Below are positions 5,100 through 27,131 of a DNA stretch of 64,000 bases, piece by piece. The translations under genes were made by a program, and so were the position numbers. The first letter of the stretch is position 1; every line of letters starts with the position of its first letter. Location of the stretch: positions 135,573-199,572 of the forward strand of contig CAYPSN010000001.1 in NCBI GenBank assembly GCA_964413715.1, read 5' to 3'. The notes under the pieces were generated by a model, which saw nothing but the letters and a program-made list of their open reading frames with translations, ran no database searches and was not told the origin of the DNA. The stretch is from an uncultured Candidatus Saccharibacteria bacterium (GTDB lineage: Bacteria > Patescibacteriota > Saccharimonadia > CAILAD01 > JADZBC01).

Positions 5100-5480
5100 T
5101 CAGCCGAAGTACCAGCTGAAGCCGGCACCCATGATCATGCCTGCCATCAGACAGAGCATGGCTGGCAGGGCGATGGCAGCACGGATCTCGTTCTGCACGA
5201 GGTACGCCGATGGCTGCACCCAGTAGTTGGCGTACTTGGCATTCACCTTGCGGCGAGCGCGCAACCAGCCGAACAGGGCACCGATGTAGCCGCCGATCAA
5301 GGCACCACCGACCGCCCAGAGGAACGGAGTGGTGTTCTCCTGCCCGCCCGACGAACGGGTGGTGTAGAGGAACTTCAGCACCAGCCCCGGATCCATGAAG
5401 CGGATGTAGGTCATCACCGCGATGAGGCCGATGATCAGGCCGATGCCGACCTTGTACAGCACATCCTTCACGGCCGTCAC
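5100..5480 (-). CDS. GC-rich integral membrane protein (3 TM), ORFan
   Basis: GTG start overlaps the stop of the upstream small ORF (GTGA); high GC; hydrophobic. Confidence 0.55.
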   Translation of the reverse strand: MTAVKDVLYKVGIGLIIGLIAVMTYIRFMDPGLVLKFLYTTRSSGGQENTTPFLWAVGGALIGGYIGALFGWLRARRKVNAKYANYWVQPSAYLVQNEIRAAIALPAMLCLMAGMIMGAGFSWYFG

Positions 5481-5587
5481 TTGAGACCACTCAGCGCCCA
5501 GTACAGGACAGCCGAGGTTCCCACGGTGAACAGCGCCGTGAGGACGTTCTTCTGCAGCTCGGTGAGCTGCTTCTTTGCCTTGGCCAC
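5477..5587 (-). CDS. small membrane protein (36 aa) MAKAKKQLTELQKNVLTALFTVGTSAVLYWALSGLK
   Basis: AAGGAGG RBS 4 nt before GTG start; translationally coupled to downstream gene; not in the ORF track (under 60 aa). Confidence 0.45.
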   Translation of the reverse strand: MAKAKKQLTELQKNVLTALFTVGTSAVLYWALSGLK

Positions 5588-5624
5588 AGGGGCCTCCTTG
5601 ATGTAGGGAACTACGAACGTATGC

Positions 5625-5653
5625 ATATTACCATATTACTTATGCTTTGTCAA
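5625..5653 (-). promoter_or_regulatory. sigma70-like promoter TTGACA-17-TAATAT (minus strand) for the 5587..5100 operon
   Basis: read directly; shares the motif TTGACAAA...TATGGTAWTATG with the promoter at 295..323. Confidence 0.5.
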
Positions 5654-5871
5654 TAATATCCTCTCTGCTGCGGCGCAGAAAACATTGCGTTTTTAGACTT
5701 TCGTTCTTTTGAACTCATCAGCATAGAAACACATCTATGGAGTCTCCCGAGGGAGCCCACAATGAGCGCGCTTTTTGTTGCGCGCCCACCATGAGCGTCT
5801 CCTCAGGTGCCTGATTGTACAGGACTTTTTGGACGGATTAGCCGCCCTCTTCGCCTCTTGGGCTTGGGATG

Positions 5872-7605
5872 TCAGCGCTTGCCGAGGATGTGCAGCTCGA
5901 TCGTCGGCCTGATCTTGTTGTCGATCAGAGTGCGGTAGGTGTCCAGCTCGGCGTCCGTTGGGAAGTGCGCCAGCAGGGTGAGCAGCTCGATGGCCAACCA
6001 CTCCTGCAGGTGCATGATCCAGCGGTCGTTTCGAGCCGTGTGCCTGCCGTTGGTCTCGTCGAGCTTGACCCAGTCGGGGTGCCTGATGTTGAGCACCAGG
6101 GTTCCCGTGCTGGACTCGAACTCCCACAGGTGGGCGTTGCCAGCAAGCTCGTCGTAGCGGAACGACAGACCCTGGGAGCTTGCGCTCACAGAGCCCTTCT
6201 TGGTTCCACCCGACCCACCGGGATGCGGCTTGGTTGGGCGTTCGCCCTCACCGCTACCGCCGCCGGGCTTGCGCCCGCCGCTCGTGCCGTTGCCGCCACG
6301 AGTACCTGGCTCGTCATCGCCCGAGGTCTCACCCTCGGCCTTCTCGCTACCTCCGGGGTCCGGAGATGGTGCTCCGAAGCGCTTCCAGTCGGCGTCGGGG
6401 AATTGCTCGCTCAGTCGCTTGAGGCTCTCGTTGGCGAGGTCCTCGTAGCGGGAGCGATCCTGATCTTCCCGTTCCTCCTCGTAGAGCGCCTGCCCGACTT
6501 CCTCGTACCAGGTGCTCAGCACCAAGTACAAGCCGTGCAGGGGATCGTTGTACTTGAAGCTCTCCCGATCATCACGCAGGGTGATGTTCTCACATCGGAT
6601 GTAGCCCTCGAAGTACCCCGAGCAGAGCACGCTGGCAGCGTCGCTGACGAATTCCCAGAACTTGCCGGAGCGAGCCTGGTTGGCAAACGCCGTCATCGTC
6701 ACACCGAAGTCACCAACCTGGCGCATGACCTGCACCTTGCCCTCCCGCCTGCCGCGCTGTTGCGGCGCACGAAAGAGGGTGATGGTGACCTTGCCGGCGA
6801 TCGGGTCGGTGTACTCGACAACGTCGAGCGGATCTCCCTGGAACGACTGAGGTTCGATGTCACAAACCTCCTTGCTGCCGTTCGAGATCAGGGCGATGCG
6901 CACCTCGACACCCTTGCGCTGCATGGCGATGCCGAAGTTCTGACGGATCTCCGACACGAGCACTTCCAGGTCGATACGACTGACATGCCGGTCCTTGGTC
7001 AGGCCGTTCATCTTGATCATGGTCTGGTAGCGAACGCCGAAACGACCGCTCAGTTCACTGCGGAACTGCTGACCAGGATCCGGAAGCTTGTGGATCGACT
7101 TCCACGGGATGTGGAGCGTCTCGTGCTGAACTCGCACCTCTTCTTCTCGGAAGGTCCACACGTGGCCCTTCTTCGCACCACGTGCGATCGAAGCGAAGGT
7201 GTAGGTCTTGCACTTGTCGATTGGAGCCACGAGCCCCAAGCCGAACTCGCCCAGCTTGTCGGCATCCTTGATGGAGTTACCGATGTTGAGCAGAGCCTCG
7301 TTGAAGCCTGCCATCGTGGTGCCCTTGCCGTTGTCGAGCACGATCACCACTCGCTTGTCGAGATCGATACCGACGAAGATCAGGCTGGCGCCTTGATCGA
7401 TGCCGTTCTGAACCATCTCCTTGAGCGCTGCTCGCAGGGTGGGGTACCGATCTGCGTAGTACATGATGGCATTGCCTTGGTGGACACCGGCCGGGGAAGA
7501 CCCCGAACCGGCCTGGACAGCCTCAGCGGGTTCGCCGCTGGGGTCTTCTGTGGGTTCCTCAGCGGGATCGCCGCTGGGGTCATCTGTGGACTCAGCCACG
7601 GTCAC
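5872..7605 (-). CDS. GHKL-superfamily ATPase (HATPase_c_3; MORC/MutL-like ATP-binding fold) with acidic repeat N-terminus, Gly-rich linker and C-terminal domain
   Basis: N-box EMVQNGIDQ (ExxxNxxD), G1 box VLDNGKGTTMAGF (DxGxG), G2 box GEFGLGL present in order; 4-bp start/stop overlap with upstream gene; high GC. Confidence 0.75.
   Translation of the reverse strand: MTVAESTDDPSGDPAEEPTEDPSGEPAEAVQAGSGSSPAGVHQGNAIMYYADRYPTLRAALKEMVQNGIDQGASLIFVGIDLDKRVVIVLDNGKGTTMAGFNEALLNIGNSIKDADKLGEFGLGLVAPIDKCKTYTFASIARGAKKGHVWTFREEEVRVQHETLHIPWKSIHKLPDPGQQFRSELSGRFGVRYQTMIKMNGLTKDRHVSRIDLEVLVSEIRQNFGIAMQRKGVEVRIALISNGSKEVCDIEPQSFQGDPLDVVEYTDPIAGKVTITLFRAPQQRGRREGKVQVMRQVGDFGVTMTAFANQARSGKFWEFVSDAASVLCSGYFEGYIRCENITLRDDRESFKYNDPLHGLYLVLSTWYEEVGQALYEEEREDQDRSRYEDLANESLKRLSEQFPDADWKRFGAPSPDPGGSEKAEGETSGDDEPGTRGGNGTSGGRKPGGGSGEGERPTKPHPGGSGGTKKGSVSASSQGLSFRYDELAGNAHLWEFESSTGTLVLNIRHPDWVKLDETNGRHTARNDRWIMHLQEWLAIELLTLLAHFPTDAELDTYRTLIDNKIRPTIELHILGKR
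7523..7594 (-). repeat. tandem 36-bp direct repeat inside the 5' end of the GHKL ATPase gene (encodes acidic DPSGDPAEEPTE/DPSGEPAEAVQ repeats)
   Basis: cagcgggttcgccgctggggtcttctgtgggttcct / cagcgggatcgccgctggggtcatctgtggactcag. Confidence 0.8.
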
Positions 7606-8318
7606 CTTCCTTCTCGGTGTTGTGCACGAGCACGCTCGGAGTTGAGCGCGTTCAGGACTTGGGAAAGGTTGAACAAGCTGTTGGCCAGCTCGAACAACTC
7701 TTCGCCCGCCAGCTCACGCAGGCGGGAGCGCTGGGCTGGAGTCCAAGATTCCAGTGCCAGCAAAGCAAGGGGGGATACCCCTTTCACCATCGCTGCCAGT
7801 ACGGGCACCAGCACGTCGAATGCTGGCGCTTCCGCCAACACCTCTGGGGTTGCCTCTGGAAGCGGGGGAAGAGCACTTGGACTGAACGCACGCAGCTTGT
7901 CCTGCAGTCCGCTCTTGGCGTACTGCAAGCTTTCTCCGTACATCTCCTCCAGGCCCTCGACGCCCACAGCAGGCTGCATGGGCTCACGCCCACGCAGGAT
8001 CTGCAGCACGTCTTGGTTGTTCTTGACCCCGCTCAGCTGCTTGGCCTCATCGATCGTGATGACCGAGTAGGCGTACAGCTCGGCGAGGTACTGGTTGAAC
8101 TGCGGAATCCGAAGCTCGGGGATCTCATACCCGGCAGCCAGCACGAAGTGCCAGAGCCGAATCTCGAGGGTTCCCTGAGCCGGATTGCTGTTGGCTGTCC
8201 AGCGTTCCACGGAAGACCGCGCAGCCCCCACGAAATCACAGACGGGCTGTGTTCCATGATGGGTTACGAAGTCCGCCAGGGACGGCTGCAGCCACCGAAA
8301 TGGCTTGTGAACCTGCAT
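7602..8318 (-). CDS. hypothetical protein (238 aa), upstream partner of the GHKL ATPase
   Basis: ATG 8318 with AAGGAGCC RBS; longer track ORF start at 8378 lies inside promoter/operator sequence, so shorter start preferred; high GC. Confidence 0.6.
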   Translation of the reverse strand: MQVHKPFRWLQPSLADFVTHHGTQPVCDFVGAARSSVERWTANSNPAQGTLEIRLWHFVLAAGYEIPELRIPQFNQYLAELYAYSVITIDEAKQLSGVKNNQDVLQILRGREPMQPAVGVEGLEEMYGESLQYAKSGLQDKLRAFSPSALPPLPEATPEVLAEAPAFDVLVPVLAAMVKGVSPLALLALESWTPAQRSRLRELAGEELFELANSLFNLSQVLNALNSERARAQHREGR

Positions 8319-8387
8319 GGCTCCTTCTTGGGGGTTGATGGGTGGGTGGATTAGCGAACTAATCATCCCTTTTTTCAAAGGGCGATC

Positions 8388-8441
8388 GTCCGTAAACGGA
8401 CGTCTGTATTATTCTATCATCATATCTGTTTTTGTCAATCA
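8388..8441 (-). promoter_or_regulatory. promoter TTGACA(8441..8436)-16-TAGAAT(8418..8413) with perfect palindrome CGTCCGTAAACGGACG (8388..8403) at about +1, candidate operator
   Basis: read directly from sequence. Confidence 0.5.
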
Positions 8442-8663
8442 TTTTTTACGTTTATTATTGTTAACAAACGTAAATAGTTTAAAGATAGGCCGTAAGTGAT
8501 TTTACTTATATTAATTCGTCATGTGTCGTTGACAATTATGTAGTGCTTATTAGCAAGAATGACATTGCCCACCAACTCTCTCAAGAACCTACAGAATGAG
8601 CAGGGATTGCACCGCAGGAGTATAATATAAGTGTAAGGAGAGATACTCTCCACAGGAGGTTCT

Positions 8664-9981: not shown

Positions 9982-10338
9982 ATGACCGAAGACCGAATCT
10001 TCGAACTCGAGGTGGTCCGCGCCACCATTCCCGGACAGGCGCCCGGGCTCGTCATCTACCTGGTGGAGAGCCACGGCCTGTTGGCGGTGCCGCGCGAGAT
10101 CTACCGATCGAGCAACACCGGCCAGGCCATCGTGCTGCAGCATGGTACCGTCCCCAGCTTCGCAGCATGGGAGCCCGGTACCTTCACCGAGATCCGTGGC
10201 TACGAGGCCCTGCGCGAGCAGATCATGCGCGTGCTGGACCCGCCAGAAGATCTGATCAAGGATGCGAACACGCTGGCCGACACGATGGTCACCCATGTTC
10301 GTTCTGAGATCGAGCCCATGCCCGGGCAGTACGCGTAG
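9982..10338 (+). CDS. GC-rich hypothetical protein (118 aa), ORFan
   Basis: strong RBS; high GC; terminator downstream. Confidence 0.55.
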   Translation: MTEDRIFELEVVRATIPGQAPGLVIYLVESHGLLAVPREIYRSSNTGQAIVLQHGTVPSFAAWEPGTFTEIRGYEALREQIMRVLDPPEDLIKDANTLADTMVTHVRSEIEPMPGQYA

Positions 10339-10365
10339 CGAAGATCCGCCCCTGCATTGGGGCAC

Positions 10366-10403
10366 CCAGCCTCCCGGCTTACCCCGGGAGGCTTTCGCTT
10401 TCT
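10366..10403 (+). terminator. terminator AGCCTCCCGG-cttacc-CCGGGAGGCT + TTTCGCTTTC
   Basis: 10-bp perfect stem plus U-tract. Confidence 0.65.
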
Positions 10404-10427
10404 CAAGCAAAGGCAAAAAACAATACA

Positions 10428-10456
10428 TTGACTTTAGTGCTATATTCTTGTATTAT
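10428..10456 (+). promoter_or_regulatory. sigma70-like promoter TTGACT-17-TATTAT
   Basis: read directly. Confidence 0.55.
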
Positions 10457-10517
10457 ATGCCTCTGCAGATCAACTGTTTCGTACCTTAACCATTCCGTTC
10501 CGACCCAAAGGGGAAAG

Positions 10518-11264
10518 ATGTTCACTCGCTACACCAACTCACACCCAGCTGCGAAGGTGGTGATCTTCGCAGCAAGCCTCGGCCTCATGTACTGGGCCTT
10601 CTACCTCATCTACGGCAACCACACCTCAGCGATCCTGCTGGTGGGCAGCGTGGCCGTGCACGAGCTCGGGCACCTGGCGGCCTACCTGTACTACGGCCTG
10701 CGTGGTGGCATCATCTTCCTGCCGCCAATTGGCGCCGTGATGATCCCCAGCGATCAAGAAGCTGCCAAGCGCATGCAGGAGTGGCGCAAGGGCATCGTGG
10801 CGTTCGCCGGCCCGGCCGTGAACATCGGCCTGGCTGCCGTCGGCCTGGTCATGATCGTGTTCATGCCCGAGTGGCGCAACTTCGGCCTGATGATGACGTC
10901 GCTGAATGGCACCCTGGCGGCCTTCAACCTTCCCCCCTTCAGCTTGCTGGACGGGGGAAACGTCGCCAAGGCGTTGTTCAACAGCGCTGATGAGGCGGGT
11001 GACCGTCGCATCGTCTGGTACCTGACCCGGTCCATGATCGGTTGCTTCGTGGCCATGGCGCTGTTCGGCACGGTGTCGCTCATGCCGGTGTTGTTCATCT
11101 GGCGGCTGCACACTGCGGCCAACGACGACGACCCCTTGGCCTGGCGAGAGCCGACGGCCATGAAGAAGCGTGAGCTGCACCAGATGACGCGGCTCTACGC
11201 CGCAGCTGCCGTGGTGACGTTCTTCATCGCCGCGGTGTTCCGGTACTGGAACGACTACCGCTAG
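10518..11264 (+). CDS. peptidase M50 (site-2 protease-like) family membrane metalloprotease
   Basis: HELGH zinc-binding motif in a TM helix (VAVHELGHLAAYL), multi-TM architecture; ATG 10518 with AAAGGGGAAAG RBS; high GC. Confidence 0.7.
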   Translation: MFTRYTNSHPAAKVVIFAASLGLMYWAFYLIYGNHTSAILLVGSVAVHELGHLAAYLYYGLRGGIIFLPPIGAVMIPSDQEAAKRMQEWRKGIVAFAGPAVNIGLAAVGLVMIVFMPEWRNFGLMMTSLNGTLAAFNLPPFSLLDGGNVAKALFNSADEAGDRRIVWYLTRSMIGCFVAMALFGTVSLMPVLFIWRLHTAANDDDPLAWREPTAMKKRELHQMTRLYAAAAVVTFFIAAVFRYWNDYR

Positions 11265-17027: not shown

Positions 17028-17189
17028 ACCTAGTATCGAGAGTGCAGTGAGAGATCTAGCTCTATGACCTGCCGGCAACCACTTTGTAAAAGAACGGTGC
17101 CCCTTCTAGCCCTGTGCGGGAAAGATAAGTGATAGACTTAACTCCTTTTTCCTGCCGGTGGCGGGATAGATACGAAAGGAGTTTTTTTT
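17028..17189 (+). promoter_or_regulatory. SAM-I (S-box) riboswitch with expression-platform terminator (CTCCTTTTTCC...GGAAAGGAG + T8) in the metK leader
   Basis: conserved S-box blocks recognisable: GAGAGTGCAGTGAGAGA, TATGACCTGCCGGCAACC, GGTGCC, GAAAGATAAG; directly upstream of metK. Confidence 0.65.
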
Positions 17190-18161
17190 ATGGCCAAACT
17201 AACTAACCTGCGAACCGCCGAAAGTGTCAGCCCCAAGCACCCCGACAAATTGTGCGATCAAGTCAGCGATGCAATATTGGATGCATACTTAGCCAAAGAC
17301 CCTACGTCCCGAGTAGCAATTGAAGCACTTGGTGGGCACGGTCAGCTGGTGGTGATGGGTGAGGTTACCAGCACGGCGACGATAGACATTGCCCCAATTG
17401 TGCAGCGCATTGTGGGCGACATTGCACTCAGTACCATCATCGTGGAGCAAAGCCCCGAGATTGCCCAAGGAGTCGATACTGGCGGAGCTGGCGACCAGGG
17501 CATAATGATTGGCTACGCTTGCAGCGAAACACCCGAAGCCTTACCGCTCGAAGTAGTGTTAAGCCGTCAGCTCAATCAGTATTTGTTTGAGCGCTGGCCG
17601 TTCGATGGCAAAACACAAATAACGTTGCGAGGAGACCAGATTGTTGCCGTGGTGGCGAGTTTTCAAAACGCAGCTACCGACGAATTGAAACAGGCAATTG
17701 CCGAGTGGCTGCAAAGCAAGCCCACGAGCAAACAACTTGCCATTCACGCCAATCCGGCGGGCGAATGGCGCCAGGGTGGATTTAAGGCTGATACGGGCCT
17801 GACTGGTCGCAAGTTGGTGGTGGATAATTACGGCCCGCGCATTCCAATTGGCGGTGGTTGCTTTAGCGGCAAAGACGCCAGTAAAGTCGATAGATCGGCC
17901 GCTTACATGGCACGTAAGATTGCGCTGGATTATCTTCGTAAGCGTGAAGCAAGTGAAGTATTTACTAGGCTTGCGTATGCAATAGGCTACGATCAGCCAC
18001 TTGAGGCTAGTATCATAATTGACGGCAAACAAGAAGCCGTGGTTGGCTATGACTTGTCGCCACGGGGCATCATTAAGCAGCTTGACTTAACCAAGCCACA
18101 GTTTGAAGCCACGGCGCGCTATGGGCATTTTGGCCATGGTGAATTTAGTTGGGAGAAGTAA
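17190..18161 (+). CDS. metK: S-adenosylmethionine synthetase (short form, 323 aa)
   Basis: SESVSPKHPDKLCDQVSDAILDAYL and GAGDQGIMIGYA signatures. Confidence 0.85.
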   Translation: MAKLTNLRTAESVSPKHPDKLCDQVSDAILDAYLAKDPTSRVAIEALGGHGQLVVMGEVTSTATIDIAPIVQRIVGDIALSTIIVEQSPEIAQGVDTGGAGDQGIMIGYACSETPEALPLEVVLSRQLNQYLFERWPFDGKTQITLRGDQIVAVVASFQNAATDELKQAIAEWLQSKPTSKQLAIHANPAGEWRQGGFKADTGLTGRKLVVDNYGPRIPIGGGCFSGKDASKVDRSAAYMARKIALDYLRKREASEVFTRLAYAIGYDQPLEASIIIDGKQEAVVGYDLSPRGIIKQLDLTKPQFEATARYGHFGHGEFSWEK

Positions 18162-25410: not shown

Positions 25411-25502
25411 CCATAATAATCAAAGAGATGAGTTGATGTATAATACATCTTGACCTAGAGGCGGAGGAGTCCGCACCTTCACACATAGAGGAGGTGGACA
25501 GA

Positions 25503-27131
25503 GTGTCCACACAATCAGAGTTCCTGACCGAAGTTGACGGCCACACAGTCGTCACCCCGGCCGGCAAGGAGTGGCTGGCCAAGATCCTGACCTCTACCGA
25601 GGACCAGGTGTATGCCTTCATGTCCGAAGCCGACCCCGTGATCGTGGCTGCGGCCATGGCTCGGCTCAGCCGTCGTGCTGGAGACATGCGGGTTGCCCTG
25701 CTCGACGAGTTCGCCGGCGATCCTGCCGACGCACCCAAGCTGATCAAGCGAGTCGTCACCGAATATGGCGATGACTCGGTGCAGCAGCTCATCACCATCC
25801 AGTTCGTAGTGGAGGGCGCCAGCAACATACTGACCAAGCTGCTGGAGTGGGGTCGGATCGGTGCAGCGTACCTGGAGCAATCCACGCGCTACATCTACTT
25901 CGACGAGAAGGGTCCGGACGGGAGATACCTGTTCTATGTCCCGGAATCACTCGAACCAGTGCTCGCCCAGCGTTACGAGCGTGACATGAACACGATCTTC
26001 GACATCTACTCGGAGGTCGTGCGTCGCGTCACCGAGCACGTGCGCGCTACCAATCCCAGGCCAGACAAGGCCGAGGACCCGTTCGGGCACAAGGGCTGGC
26101 CTGCAGTTACGCGAGCGCAAGCTTGTGATGCCGCACGTCCGCTCTTGCCGGTGGCAACCAAGTCAACCGTCGGTTTCGCCATGAGCGCGCAGGCCGTCGA
26201 TGCACTGGTGATGCGGCTGCTTGCCCATGAGCTGCCCGAAGCCCAAGCGGTCGGCCGCAAGATCCTCGATCATGCCAGGCTGGTCGTTCCAGCGTTCCTA
26301 GAGCGCACTGACCGGCCTGACCGCGGAGGGCTCACTACAGAGTACTGGCGAGGCACCACTTCGGCCATGGCCGAGCTGGCAGACGAGTTGCTGCCGGCAG
26401 AACCCGCATGGTGGGACATGCGGTCGGTCAAGCTGACCAGCTATTGGCCGCACAGCGAGCTGGACTTGGCGCCAGCGATGCTGTTCGATCACTGCGGATT
26501 GTCACTTCGTGGCATCCAGACGCAGCTGGAGATGCACCGCGACTCGCACCGGGTCAAGGAGCAGATCCTCCAGGCATACGTGGGTGATCGGCTAAACCGT
26601 CGCCACAAGCCCGGCAGGGCGCTAGAGACAGCGCACTTCAGCTGGGAGCTGGTTGCAGATTACGGCGTGTTCCGCGATCTGCAGCGCCACCGTATGGTCG
26701 ACGACCTGCGCTGGCAGCAACTACACCCTGGCTTCGGCTACGAAGTGCCCGAGCTGGTTATCAAGGCTGGCTGTGGAGGTCTGTTCGAGCAGGCCTACGC
26801 CATCTCGGAGCAGTTGTTCTCAGCTATGGCAACTGAGCACGCGGTGGAAGCGCAGTACGCAACCCTGCTAGGTCACCGCATGCGGTTCTGCATGACCACC
26901 AACCTGCGGGAGCTGTTCCACATGCTGGAGTTGCGCACCAGCCCCCAGGGGCACCCTGGCTATCGCAAGCTGTGCCAAGAGATGTACCGCGAACTGCGGT
27001 TCGTCTATCCGCGTTTGGCAGCCGCTATGCAGTTCGTCAATCAGAGTGACAACCTGGACGAACTCACCCGCATGGCAGCCGAACGCGCCACTGCAGCCAA
27101 GTTGGCGGGGCTGGACCAGCCAGAGGGCTAG
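25503..27131 (+). CDS. tandem-domain flavin-dependent thymidylate synthase (ThyX)-like protein, about 540 aa
   Basis: C-terminal half has ThyX RHR motif (FRDLQRHRMVDD) and NLRELFHMLELRTSPQGHPGYR; N-terminal half has a degenerate ThyX-like block (QFVVEGASNILTKLLEWGRIGAAYLEQSTRY); high GC; start uncertain (GTG 25494 or 25503). Confidence 0.6.
   Translation: MSTQSEFLTEVDGHTVVTPAGKEWLAKILTSTEDQVYAFMSEADPVIVAAAMARLSRRAGDMRVALLDEFAGDPADAPKLIKRVVTEYGDDSVQQLITIQFVVEGASNILTKLLEWGRIGAAYLEQSTRYIYFDEKGPDGRYLFYVPESLEPVLAQRYERDMNTIFDIYSEVVRRVTEHVRATNPRPDKAEDPFGHKGWPAVTRAQACDAARPLLPVATKSTVGFAMSAQAVDALVMRLLAHELPEAQAVGRKILDHARLVVPAFLERTDRPDRGGLTTEYWRGTTSAMAELADELLPAEPAWWDMRSVKLTSYWPHSELDLAPAMLFDHCGLSLRGIQTQLEMHRDSHRVKEQILQAYVGDRLNRRHKPGRALETAHFSWELVADYGVFRDLQRHRMVDDLRWQQLHPGFGYEVPELVIKAGCGGLFEQAYAISEQLFSAMATEHAVEAQYATLLGHRMRFCMTTNLRELFHMLELRTSPQGHPGYRKLCQEMYRELRFVYPRLAAAMQFVNQSDNLDELTRMAAERATAAKLAGLDQPEG

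Follow-up and report, generated by a model that had tools for sequence, protein, structure and literature searches.

The stretch of DNA analysed here, referred to as the window, comprises 64,000 nucleotides (nt) of an uncultured Candidatus Saccharibacteria bacterium (assembly GCA_964413715.1, contig CAYPSN010000001.1, positions 135,573 to 199,572). On its minus strand lies a two-gene operon that encodes a GHKL (Bergerat-fold) ATPase and, upstream of it, a smaller protein, here called the partner, which is best read from its modelled structure as a tandem helix-turn-helix (HTH) protein. The pair recurs at other loci, designated L007 to L031. An earlier note on this DNA had singled out the operon as a candidate defence-type or stress system. 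The two genes are as follows.

5872-7605, minus strand: GHKL ATPase gene, GTG start, 577 amino acids (aa)
7602-8318, minus strand: partner gene, ATG start, 238 aa, with AAGGAG 5 nt before the start

The genes adjoin each other and, as the earlier note had it, form a coupled, GC-rich unit: their GC content is 0.61-0.63 against about 0.50 for the whole window, and the GC content at third codon positions (GC3) is 0.72-0.80 against 0.46-0.59 in most window genes. The 4-bp overlap reported between them depends on where the ATPase gene begins. It stands if the GTG at 7605 is the start, which gives a GTGA overlap, but not with the next GTG, at 7599, which public gene callers choose (575 aa) and which puts 2 nt between the genes. 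Most relatives space the two genes by -4 to +3 nt; the published gene call at L010 leaves a gap of 29 nt, yet an in-frame start with a 4-nt overlap is open there as well, so tight coupling is conserved. An antisense open reading frame (ORF) of 733 aa (5869-8070, plus strand) spans both genes and is a shadow of the GC-rich coding region. At L029 the public annotation has called the equivalent antisense ORF (6528-8258, minus strand; 576 aa, no Pfam match) and passed over the ATPase, which means that automated annotation can miss this family.

The ATPase matches Pfam HATPase_c_3 (E 1.6e-9). The ordered boxes described in the earlier note are present (N box ExxxNxxD, G1 DxGxG and G2 GxxGxG, within a Bergerat fold), and the protein belongs to the GHKL superfamily. 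Among 166 family members E63, N67, D70, D91, G93, G95, G119, G122 and G124 are 96-99% conserved, as are K113, K131, C132, R347 (99%), W366, R386 and N506. Judged from these conserved catalytic residues, it is predicted to be a working ATPase. An AlphaFold2 model built on an alignment of 17 family members (mean predicted local distance difference test score, pLDDT, 78.5) divides the protein as follows.

Residues 1-31: acidic disordered tail
Residues 33-230: Bergerat ATPase domain
Residues 234-340: beta-rich S5-fold transducer
Residues 354-401: long helix of 48 residues
Residues 411-478: Gly/Pro-rich disordered linker
Residues 481-573: family-specific compact alpha/beta C-terminal domain

Separate structural matches to uS9 confirm that the second domain has the S5 fold. 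The ATPase is thus in the GHKL+S5 class (MutL, MORC, GyrB, TopoVI-B, Hsp90) but in none of its named families. Two further features noted earlier were also found: the long Gly-rich linker (residues 411-478) has 21 Gly in 73 residues and a pLDDT below 50, and the acidic tandem-repeat N terminus goes back to a 36-nt unit present in 1.9 copies (7521-7589, minus strand; TRF score 124, 93% matches) that encodes an acidic (T)EDPSGEPAE repeat. This tail varies in length and sequence among relatives and is disordered in the model. A Pfam search with the C-terminal domain gave no match, and no HExxH, PD-(D/E)xK or HNH-like pattern is conserved in it across the family; a nuclease or protease assignment was dropped for these reasons. 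A zincin-like metallopeptidase was likewise discarded because HExxH is conserved nowhere in the family.

For the partner, the AlphaFold2 model (pLDDT 79) comprises these parts.

Residues ~7-61: helical module HTH1
Residues ~73-108: helical module HTH2
Residues 120-144: long helix
Residues 146-156: Pro/Ala-rich disordered linker
Residues 167-237: C-terminal helical domain, ending in a conserved LNALxSERAR

Structural matches of the model are to XRE-type HTH proteins, with the bipartite POU and HNF-1 domains also among them. The HTH modules carry SVERW...P..G and LRG..P, which we take to be XRE recognition-helix signatures, and a single distant homologue matches Pfam HTH_23 (E 1.6e-5). Searches with the window protein in Pfam, NCBIfam, PADLOC and PHROG gave no match, nor did a PDB sequence-profile search using the partner alignment. 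The partner is best read as a tandem HTH protein, its two domains modelling as XRE/lambda-repressor-like, and is a putative DNA-binding protein.

How widespread is the pair? An exhaustive hidden Markov model (HMM) search put the ATPase family at a minimum of 434 clusters (50% identity; E<=1e-30), and nearly all of the best 150 clusters are full length (520-632 aa). A word-indexed homology search returned 18 ATPase and 15 partner clusters, to which a profile re-search added one protein; set beside the exhaustive count, word-indexed searching badly undercounts the family. The gene directly preceding that of the ATPase encodes a partner homologue in every one of the 16 distinct loci that have upstream DNA (the window, L007, L008, L010, L011, L012, which is partial, L013, L014, L018, L019, L023, L024, L026, L027, L029/30 and L031). 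This arrangement holds down to 28% ATPase identity, and since members at 28-31% are included the pairing is obligate; the co-occurrence in other genomes on which the earlier proposal hinged is therefore strict. All organism-named genomes that carry the pair are Saccharibacteria/Saccharimonadia, a range to which the distant loci L008, L023, L024 and L026 do not contribute. A scan of 185,579 species genomes with narrow patterns gave 4 loci, a lower bound and not a prevalence. No copy was found in phages or plasmids by megablast of the locus or tblastn of both proteins, nor in a scan of IMG/VR, and a BFVD fold search returned generic GHKL proteins alone (topoisomerase II ATPases, rIIA, Hsp90-like; TM-scores 0.3-0.4). 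A phage or plasmid origin was dropped after these searches.

The control region and the 3' end of the operon contain the following features.

8445-8474: AT-rich inverted repeat found by repeat search, with 13-nt arms, 92% complementary, and a 4-nt spacer, just upstream of the -35 element
8438-8411, minus strand: sigma-70-type promoter TTGACA-16-(TG)TAGAAT, 11 of 12 positions, extended -10
8319-8410, minus strand: structured 5' leader of ~92 nt with three hairpins (minimum free energy -24.7 kcal/mol, z -3.67 against shuffles)
8387-8402, minus strand: hairpin P1 of the leader fold, which is the palindrome CGTCCGTAAACGGACG
8367-8382, minus strand: hairpin P2 of the leader fold
8349-8364, minus strand: hairpin P3 of the leader fold
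8321-8326, minus strand: Shine-Dalgarno sequence AAGGAG at the 3' end of the leader, after a C/A-rich tract
5746-5807, minus strand: long GC-rich hairpin, 65-125 nt past the ATPase stop, with no U-tract after it

The TTGACA-16-TAGAAT promoter named in the earlier note is thus confirmed, with an extended TG in addition. Its region holds 7 promoter-like sites where 1.2 are expected, and similar TTGAC(A/T/C)-N17-TAnnAT elements occupy the equivalent position in L007, L027, L029, L031, L013, L018 and L026. The palindrome CGTCCGTAAACGGACG, which occurs once in the window, begins ~8 nt past the -10 element, at roughly the predicted +1 to +3. It had been described as a perfect 16-bp palindrome at +1; the position holds, but perfection does not, as 7-bp arms flank a non-complementary AA/TT centre (7+2+7). 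Taken alone it is only weakly above chance (an estimated ~0.17 inverted repeats of like quality per 260 nt), and we accept it as real because four other lineages conserve it as a hairpin. Neither the other loci nor the remainder of the window contains its sequence, and a sequence-conserved operator was dropped on this ground.

Comparable leaders of 92-102 nt occur in five lineages, namely the window, L007 (9186-9280), L027 (5876-5964), L029 (5906-6000) and L031 (260-358), which were brought into a three-hairpin alignment. In all five the first hairpin, which in the window is the palindrome, lies a few nt past the -10 element, the second has CCCUUU/AAAGGG or CUCC/GGAG, and the third starts with an invariant GUGAUUAG, after which come a C/A-rich tract and the Shine-Dalgarno site. 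All three hairpins reappear in the RNAalifold consensus of these lineages. Under this structure 86% of cells form pairs; sliding the partners by 1-3 columns lowers the share to 31-52%. Compensatory double changes are seen at six pairs, against 0-2 in the slid controls, and the observed covariation was reached by 6 of 500 shuffles. The covariation among these five sequences suggests a three-hairpin leader. P1 differs in sequence in each lineage and has G-U pairs in two. A repressor operator, the role given to the palindrome in the earlier note, has to be reconsidered, since it is also hairpin P1 of a conserved leader that tolerates G-U pairs: a role as RNA, stabilising the 5' end or acting as a regulatory leader, is no less likely. 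That the partner reads as a tandem HTH protein makes autoregulation plausible again, and the palindrome may be a co-evolving operator for a fast-evolving HTH. The leader matched no Rfam family, and a covariance model of it found no further copy within the window or at the distant loci. At the latter the leaders differ, yet a hairpin is often present soon after the -10 element. Taken together with its invariant GUGAUUAG, the three-hairpin leader is a candidate new cis-regulatory RNA of the operon.

The AT-rich inverted repeat sits between a divergent Bact_hydrolase gene and the operon's -35 element, has CGTTT/AAACG cores in common with the P1 palindrome, and is a possible protein-binding site. 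At the other end of the operon the 3' region (176 nt) has a folding energy of -74.1 kcal/mol (z -5.2), the hairpin core is unique in the window, and the hairpin at 5746-5807 probably marks the operon's 3' end or is a terminator. After it comes a second near-consensus promoter, TTGACA-17-TAATAT (5653-5625, minus strand), that appears to drive small membrane-protein genes of 49 and 126 aa (5100-5626, minus strand) found in the window lineage only.

In at least 10 lineages the pair uses a single slot, in the order groES-groEL-(PRK-NUDIX)-partner-ATPase-(small genes)-(200-aa gene, opposite strand)-pgi-ftsX-ABC. The run from groES-groEL through the pair and the 200-aa gene to pgi is kept in L007, L010, L013, L014, L018, L027 and L029, and the pgi side of the slot also in L012, L016 and L031. 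Other copies lie after rplJL, gyrB or dnaG, or before rpsP. The window copy is outside the groEL-pgi slot, where most of its relatives have theirs, and lies between the Bact_hydrolase gene and the small membrane genes.

The pair and its flanks differ in their degrees of identity. Between L013 and L014 the ATPase is 86% identical, GroEL 75%, PGI 48% and the partner 52%; between L013 and L010 GroEL is 85% identical and the ATPase 35%; and between L007 and L012 PGI is 90% identical and the ATPase 57%. In L013 and L014 a block of 81%-identical DNA opens within the 3' end of the partner gene and takes in the ATPase gene, against 69% identity for groEL. GC3 is likewise out of step: it is 0.65-0.92 in the pair against 0.40-0.58 in the flanks (groEL included where present) in the window, L007, L027, L031 and L013, that is, in the window and 4 of the 9 relatives examined, and in L014 the ATPase gene alone is GC3-rich (0.79 against 0.53 for the partner gene). 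Since both phylogeny and GC3 are discordant with the flanks, the cassette has apparently undergone recurrent recombination or transfer. When the window is compared with L007 and L027, the HTH half is the fastest-evolving part of the partner (54-55% identity), and the C-terminal domain (80-86%) tracks the ATPase (73-78%). These figures would fit a diversifying, putative targeting domain joined to a C-terminal domain that is co-inherited with the ATPase. At L010 the same slot holds, two genes downstream of the pair, an AAA_14/DUF4143 ATPase (10066-11199) that matches the PADLOC candidate PDC-S01 (E 8e-117). Cassette evolution of this kind fits, and does not prove, an accessory conflict-type module.

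Some of the small genes in the slot recur. In the groEL-pgi clade the ATPase gene is followed, usually after an ORF of 70-86 aa, by a gene whose product, small, Cys-rich and Zn-ribbon-like, has 122-168 aa. The window lacks this gene, which may encode an optional accessory component. Its copies are these.

L007, 12135-12641: Zn-ribbon-like gene
L027, 8854-9243: Zn-ribbon-like gene
L029, 8865-9233: Zn-ribbon-like gene
L031, 2970-3353: Zn-ribbon-like gene

Downstream genes were considered as a third component of the system and rejected, the Zn-ribbon gene being absent from the window and the 49-aa and 126-aa membrane genes of the window being absent elsewhere. A conserved protein of 200-237 aa is always encoded convergently to the pair, just upstream of pgi (L007 12638-13282 and L027 9602-10315, both minus strand), with equivalents in L010, L012-L018, L029 and L031; it has the N terminus MNLNPLKKDDNTDALVKALEDAN, a low-complexity Pro/Ala/Thr middle and a conserved C terminus.

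What might the pair do? At the level of architecture we favour, tentatively and at somewhat short of an even chance, an accessory two-gene cassette that encodes an HTH-guided, ATP-gated GHKL clamp. A bicistronic mRNA would supply partner and ATPase in a fixed ratio. The partner would bind DNA through its tandem HTH domains, the fast-evolving N-terminal half picking the target, possibly the operon's own promoter, and the link to the ATPase would be made by its conserved C-terminal helical domain. ATP-driven dimerisation of GHKL domains is established for MutL, MORC, Hsp90 and GyrB, and ATP binding would similarly dimerise the N-terminal GHKL domains of this ATPase. Its long helix, its C-terminal domain or both would join the other end, and the flexible linker of ~70 residues would leave a large central opening, as in a MutL-like ring closing on DNA. 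Such a clamp would be loaded on, or released from, DNA at partner-bound sites. Because no nuclease, helicase, methylase or other effector domain is present, its output would most likely be steric (silencing, compaction or remodelling) and not degradation. The way the cassette evolves would then speak for a conflict-related role, whether control of invading DNA or a selfish module, over a core housekeeping one.

The defence role put forward in the earlier note found no direct support. The signs that point to conflict are indirect (a phylogeny discordant with the flanks, the GC3 excess, the fast-evolving HTH region and, in one relative, PDC-S01 in the slot), and several observations weigh against the clamp cassette as a conflict module. 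No effector domain was found in either protein, matches to defence families being limited to the GHKL boxes; searches turned up no mobile-element gene and no phage or plasmid copy; and no restriction-modification, nuclease, integrase or phage genes were seen near the pair, whose immediate neighbours are housekeeping genes (groESL, pgi, rplJL, gyrB, rpsP). The order groES-groEL...pair...pgi is kept across lineages whose ATPases are 33-45% identical, as would also be expected of a core function specific to the lineage and long inherited vertically. In L023 and L024 the GC3 excess is slight, and in the GC-rich L010 and L008 there is none; the excess could instead stem from GC-biased gene conversion at a recombination hotspot. 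Finally, the partner is mildly acidic (pI 5.4 overall, with HTH1 at 8.1 and HTH2 at 4.9), so DNA binding is not assured. Within the clamp model we regard a conflict or defence role as doubtful. In its most specific version the pair would be a nuclease-free, HTH-guided, MORC-like silencing or immunity machine of Saccharibacteria, a prokaryotic counterpart of eukaryotic MORC/SMCHD1 silencing: its rapidly diversifying tandem-HTH subunit would recognise invading or selfish DNA, the ATPase would clamp and silence that DNA, and the cassette would be continually exchanged by recombination at a fixed slot. This version we think unlikely.

A rival reading is a vertically inherited Saccharibacteria module for chromosome organisation or repair, MutL/MORC-like, in which the HTH protein would be the DNA-loading factor. 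Synteny of the groEL-pgi slot across lineages, contexts that always consist of housekeeping genes, a large and uniform family (434 clusters) with intact catalytic residues, searches that found no phage, plasmid or viral-contig copies, and a layout of N-terminal domain, disordered linker and C-terminal domain that resembles MutL all agree with this. It sits less well with identities that are discordant with the flanking genes and a visible recombination block, with the strong GC3 excess over flanks in the window and 4 of 9 relatives, and with an HTH half that outpaces the rest of the pair in its divergence, whereas most housekeeping regulators behave the other way round. MutL equivalog models also stay far under their cut-offs. 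The yield of 4 loci from 185,579 species genomes counts against it as well, a weak point given the narrow patterns. We judge this explanation somewhat unlikely. Another reading is a stress or chaperone system, in which an Hsp90/sacsin-like ATPase, co-located with groESL, would have the HTH protein as regulator or co-factor: the best PDB sequence match is to HtpG (E 1.5e-5), the sacsin N-terminal model scores E 1.5e-8, 6 of 17 members match Pfam SACS, the pair follows groES-groEL in at least 7 lineages, and R347 of the S5 domain, 99% conserved, is to our mind reminiscent of the Hsp90 catalytic arginine. The similarity is, however, limited to the GHKL+S5 core, where the scores of MORC, SMCHD1 and MutL are as good or higher; after groEL the pair is served by a promoter of its own; the window copy and several others are away from groEL; Hsp90 co-chaperones offer no parallel for a partner of DNA-binding type; and the discordant evolution is unlike that of a chaperone. 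A chaperone system is very improbable.

The remaining alternatives start from the HTH protein as a repressor. In an autoregulated addiction module of the toxin-antitoxin kind it would be antitoxin and repressor at the promoter-proximal repeats, and the ATPase would arrest growth. The leading position of the HTH gene and its tight coupling to the ATPase gene, inverted repeats that flank the promoter (8387-8402 and 8445-8474), a fast-evolving HTH, and horizontal or recombinational spread of the cassette could all be read in this way. We know of no GHKL+S5 ATPase that acts as a toxin, and a 577-aa protein with a conserved catalytic cycle would be atypical of a type II toxin; moreover, P1 behaves as an RNA hairpin with RNA-type covariation, and the palindrome sequence is not conserved at other loci. 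An addiction module is improbable. Equally small is the chance of a transcription switch, in which the partner would repress its own and other operons and the ATPase would be an ATP-dependent anti-repressor or sensor, as in ImmR-ImmA, DdrO-IrrE and CapH-CapP, a degenerate zincin-like C-terminal domain of the ATPase gripping the repressor. The order of repressor then modulator and the tight coupling fit. Since no HExxH is conserved in the family, protease activity is not to be expected; the region under the zincin matches could not be confirmed; and with no other copy of the leader or palindrome in the 64-kb window, no regulon is visible.

Two further observations concern the window at large. 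A SAM-I riboswitch (RF00162, 52 bits) at 17030-17131 (plus strand) lies directly upstream of metK (S-AdoMet synthetase, 17190-18161), a classical arrangement. Two other genes are GC3-rich like the operon, an M50 peptidase gene (10428-11264; 0.84) and a gene for a 545-aa protein with two ThyX (Thy1) stretches (25494-27131; 0.76); standing amid window genes with a GC3 of ~0.5, these genes make the genome compositionally mosaic. The window ThyX looks internally duplicated, and L008 carries an 845-aa thymidylate kinase-ThyX fusion.

Saccharibacteria and other members of the candidate phyla radiation (CPR) have tiny genomes with few recognised defence or chromatin systems, and a two-gene module that stays intact over at least 434 clusters in such reduced genomes must be useful. 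The pair joins the ATPase engine of MutL and of eukaryotic MORC/SMCHD1 to a dedicated subunit of DNA-binding type, free of nucleases. If it acts on foreign DNA, it would represent a new, non-degradative form of prokaryotic immunity and a simple model of MORC-type clamp targeting; if it is housekeeping, it would be a CPR-specific DNA-transaction system. The two proteins, both small, can be separated, and the predictions of DNA binding, ATP-dependent dimerisation and contact with the partner lend themselves to direct tests. The three-hairpin leader adds an uncatalogued cis-RNA candidate.

How does the pair compare with known systems? The housekeeping families to which the earlier note would have yielded (MutL, GyrB, Hsp90, histidine kinase) do not take in the ATPase, and the partner is not a known cognate. 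For MutL, TIGR00585 reaches 19 bits where the cut-off is 180, PRK00095 reaches 13-17 bits where it is 391-693, no match to MutL C-terminal regions was found in the ATPase by PDB profile search or Pfam, and the partner is neither MutS- nor MutH-like. Hsp90/HtpG and sacsin give the best sequence-level matches, at the G1/G2 boxes (LGxFGxGxxS): the family profile searched against PDB sequences hits HtpG best (E 1.5e-5), and also MutL, at the N-terminal boxes only, and the NCBIfam sacsin N-terminal model, like the MutL models, is sub-threshold. The HtpG match covers residues 53-126 only and there is no Pfam HSP90 match at E<=1, so membership in Hsp90/HtpG was rejected. These matches span ~75-110 residues; none extends to the middle or C-terminal regions of Hsp90, and the fold of the partner is of DNA-binding type.

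The top structural matches of the ATPase are MORC2/3 and SMCHD1, at 10-14% sequence identity. These eukaryotic proteins are chromatin silencers that dimerise in an ATP-dependent manner. Likenesses are the long helix after or interrupting the ATPase module and the proposed ATP-gated dimer that acts on DNA without cutting it. The ATPase differs in having no CW, hinge or chromo-like reader; targeting would come instead from a separate HTH subunit. MORC proper is defined by a specific sequence motif and a coiled-coil insertion, and its prokaryotic operons include superfamily-II helicase, methylase or endonuclease genes (PMC2292703). The ATPase was not placed in this family, because identity to MORC2/3 is 11-14%, the scores are no better than those for MutL/TRAP1, and no helicase, methylase or nuclease gene accompanies it in the 16 loci.

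Among defence systems, Tiamat TmtA, Mza MzaB and VcSduA have a GHKL domain in common with the ATPase; VcSduA/paraMORC3 is a GHKL-Shedu nuclease fusion (PMC12137116). Of 17 family members, 14 match the PADLOC TmtA models (E 8.7e-9 at best) and one matches MzaB, over ~60 residues of profiles of 1,500 positions, and the family is without DUF4263, a PD-(D/E)xK nuclease or other Mza/Tiamat features. PADLOC-DB v2.0 (to 2023) gave no full-length match for the ATPase and no match for the partner. XRE controllers that come first in their operons (restriction-modification C proteins, type II antitoxins, ImmR, CapH, Aca) differ from the partner, which has two HTH modules, a long helix and a C-terminal domain of ~70 aa, and they precede a nuclease, toxin or protease gene and not one for a GHKL ATPase. 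The literature searched contains no description of an HTH protein paired with a GHKL ATPase, and the earlier note's view that the pairing is not a described system stands, PADLOC giving GHKL-box matches only. Closest in theme are paraMORC1-5 and prokaryotic MORC, GHKL+S5 ATPases of restriction-modification-like operons (Iyer, Abhiman & Aravind 2008, PMC2292703). The GHKL+S5 engine is common to paraMORC and to the Saccharibacteria ATPase. The latter, however, has an obligatory tandem-HTH partner and a C-terminal domain without a Pfam family, and none of the 16 loci adds a superfamily-II helicase, methylase, restriction-fold, HNH or TIR protein. The pair thus shares the paraMORC-type theme and differs from it by a tandem-HTH partner without nuclease, helicase or methylase.

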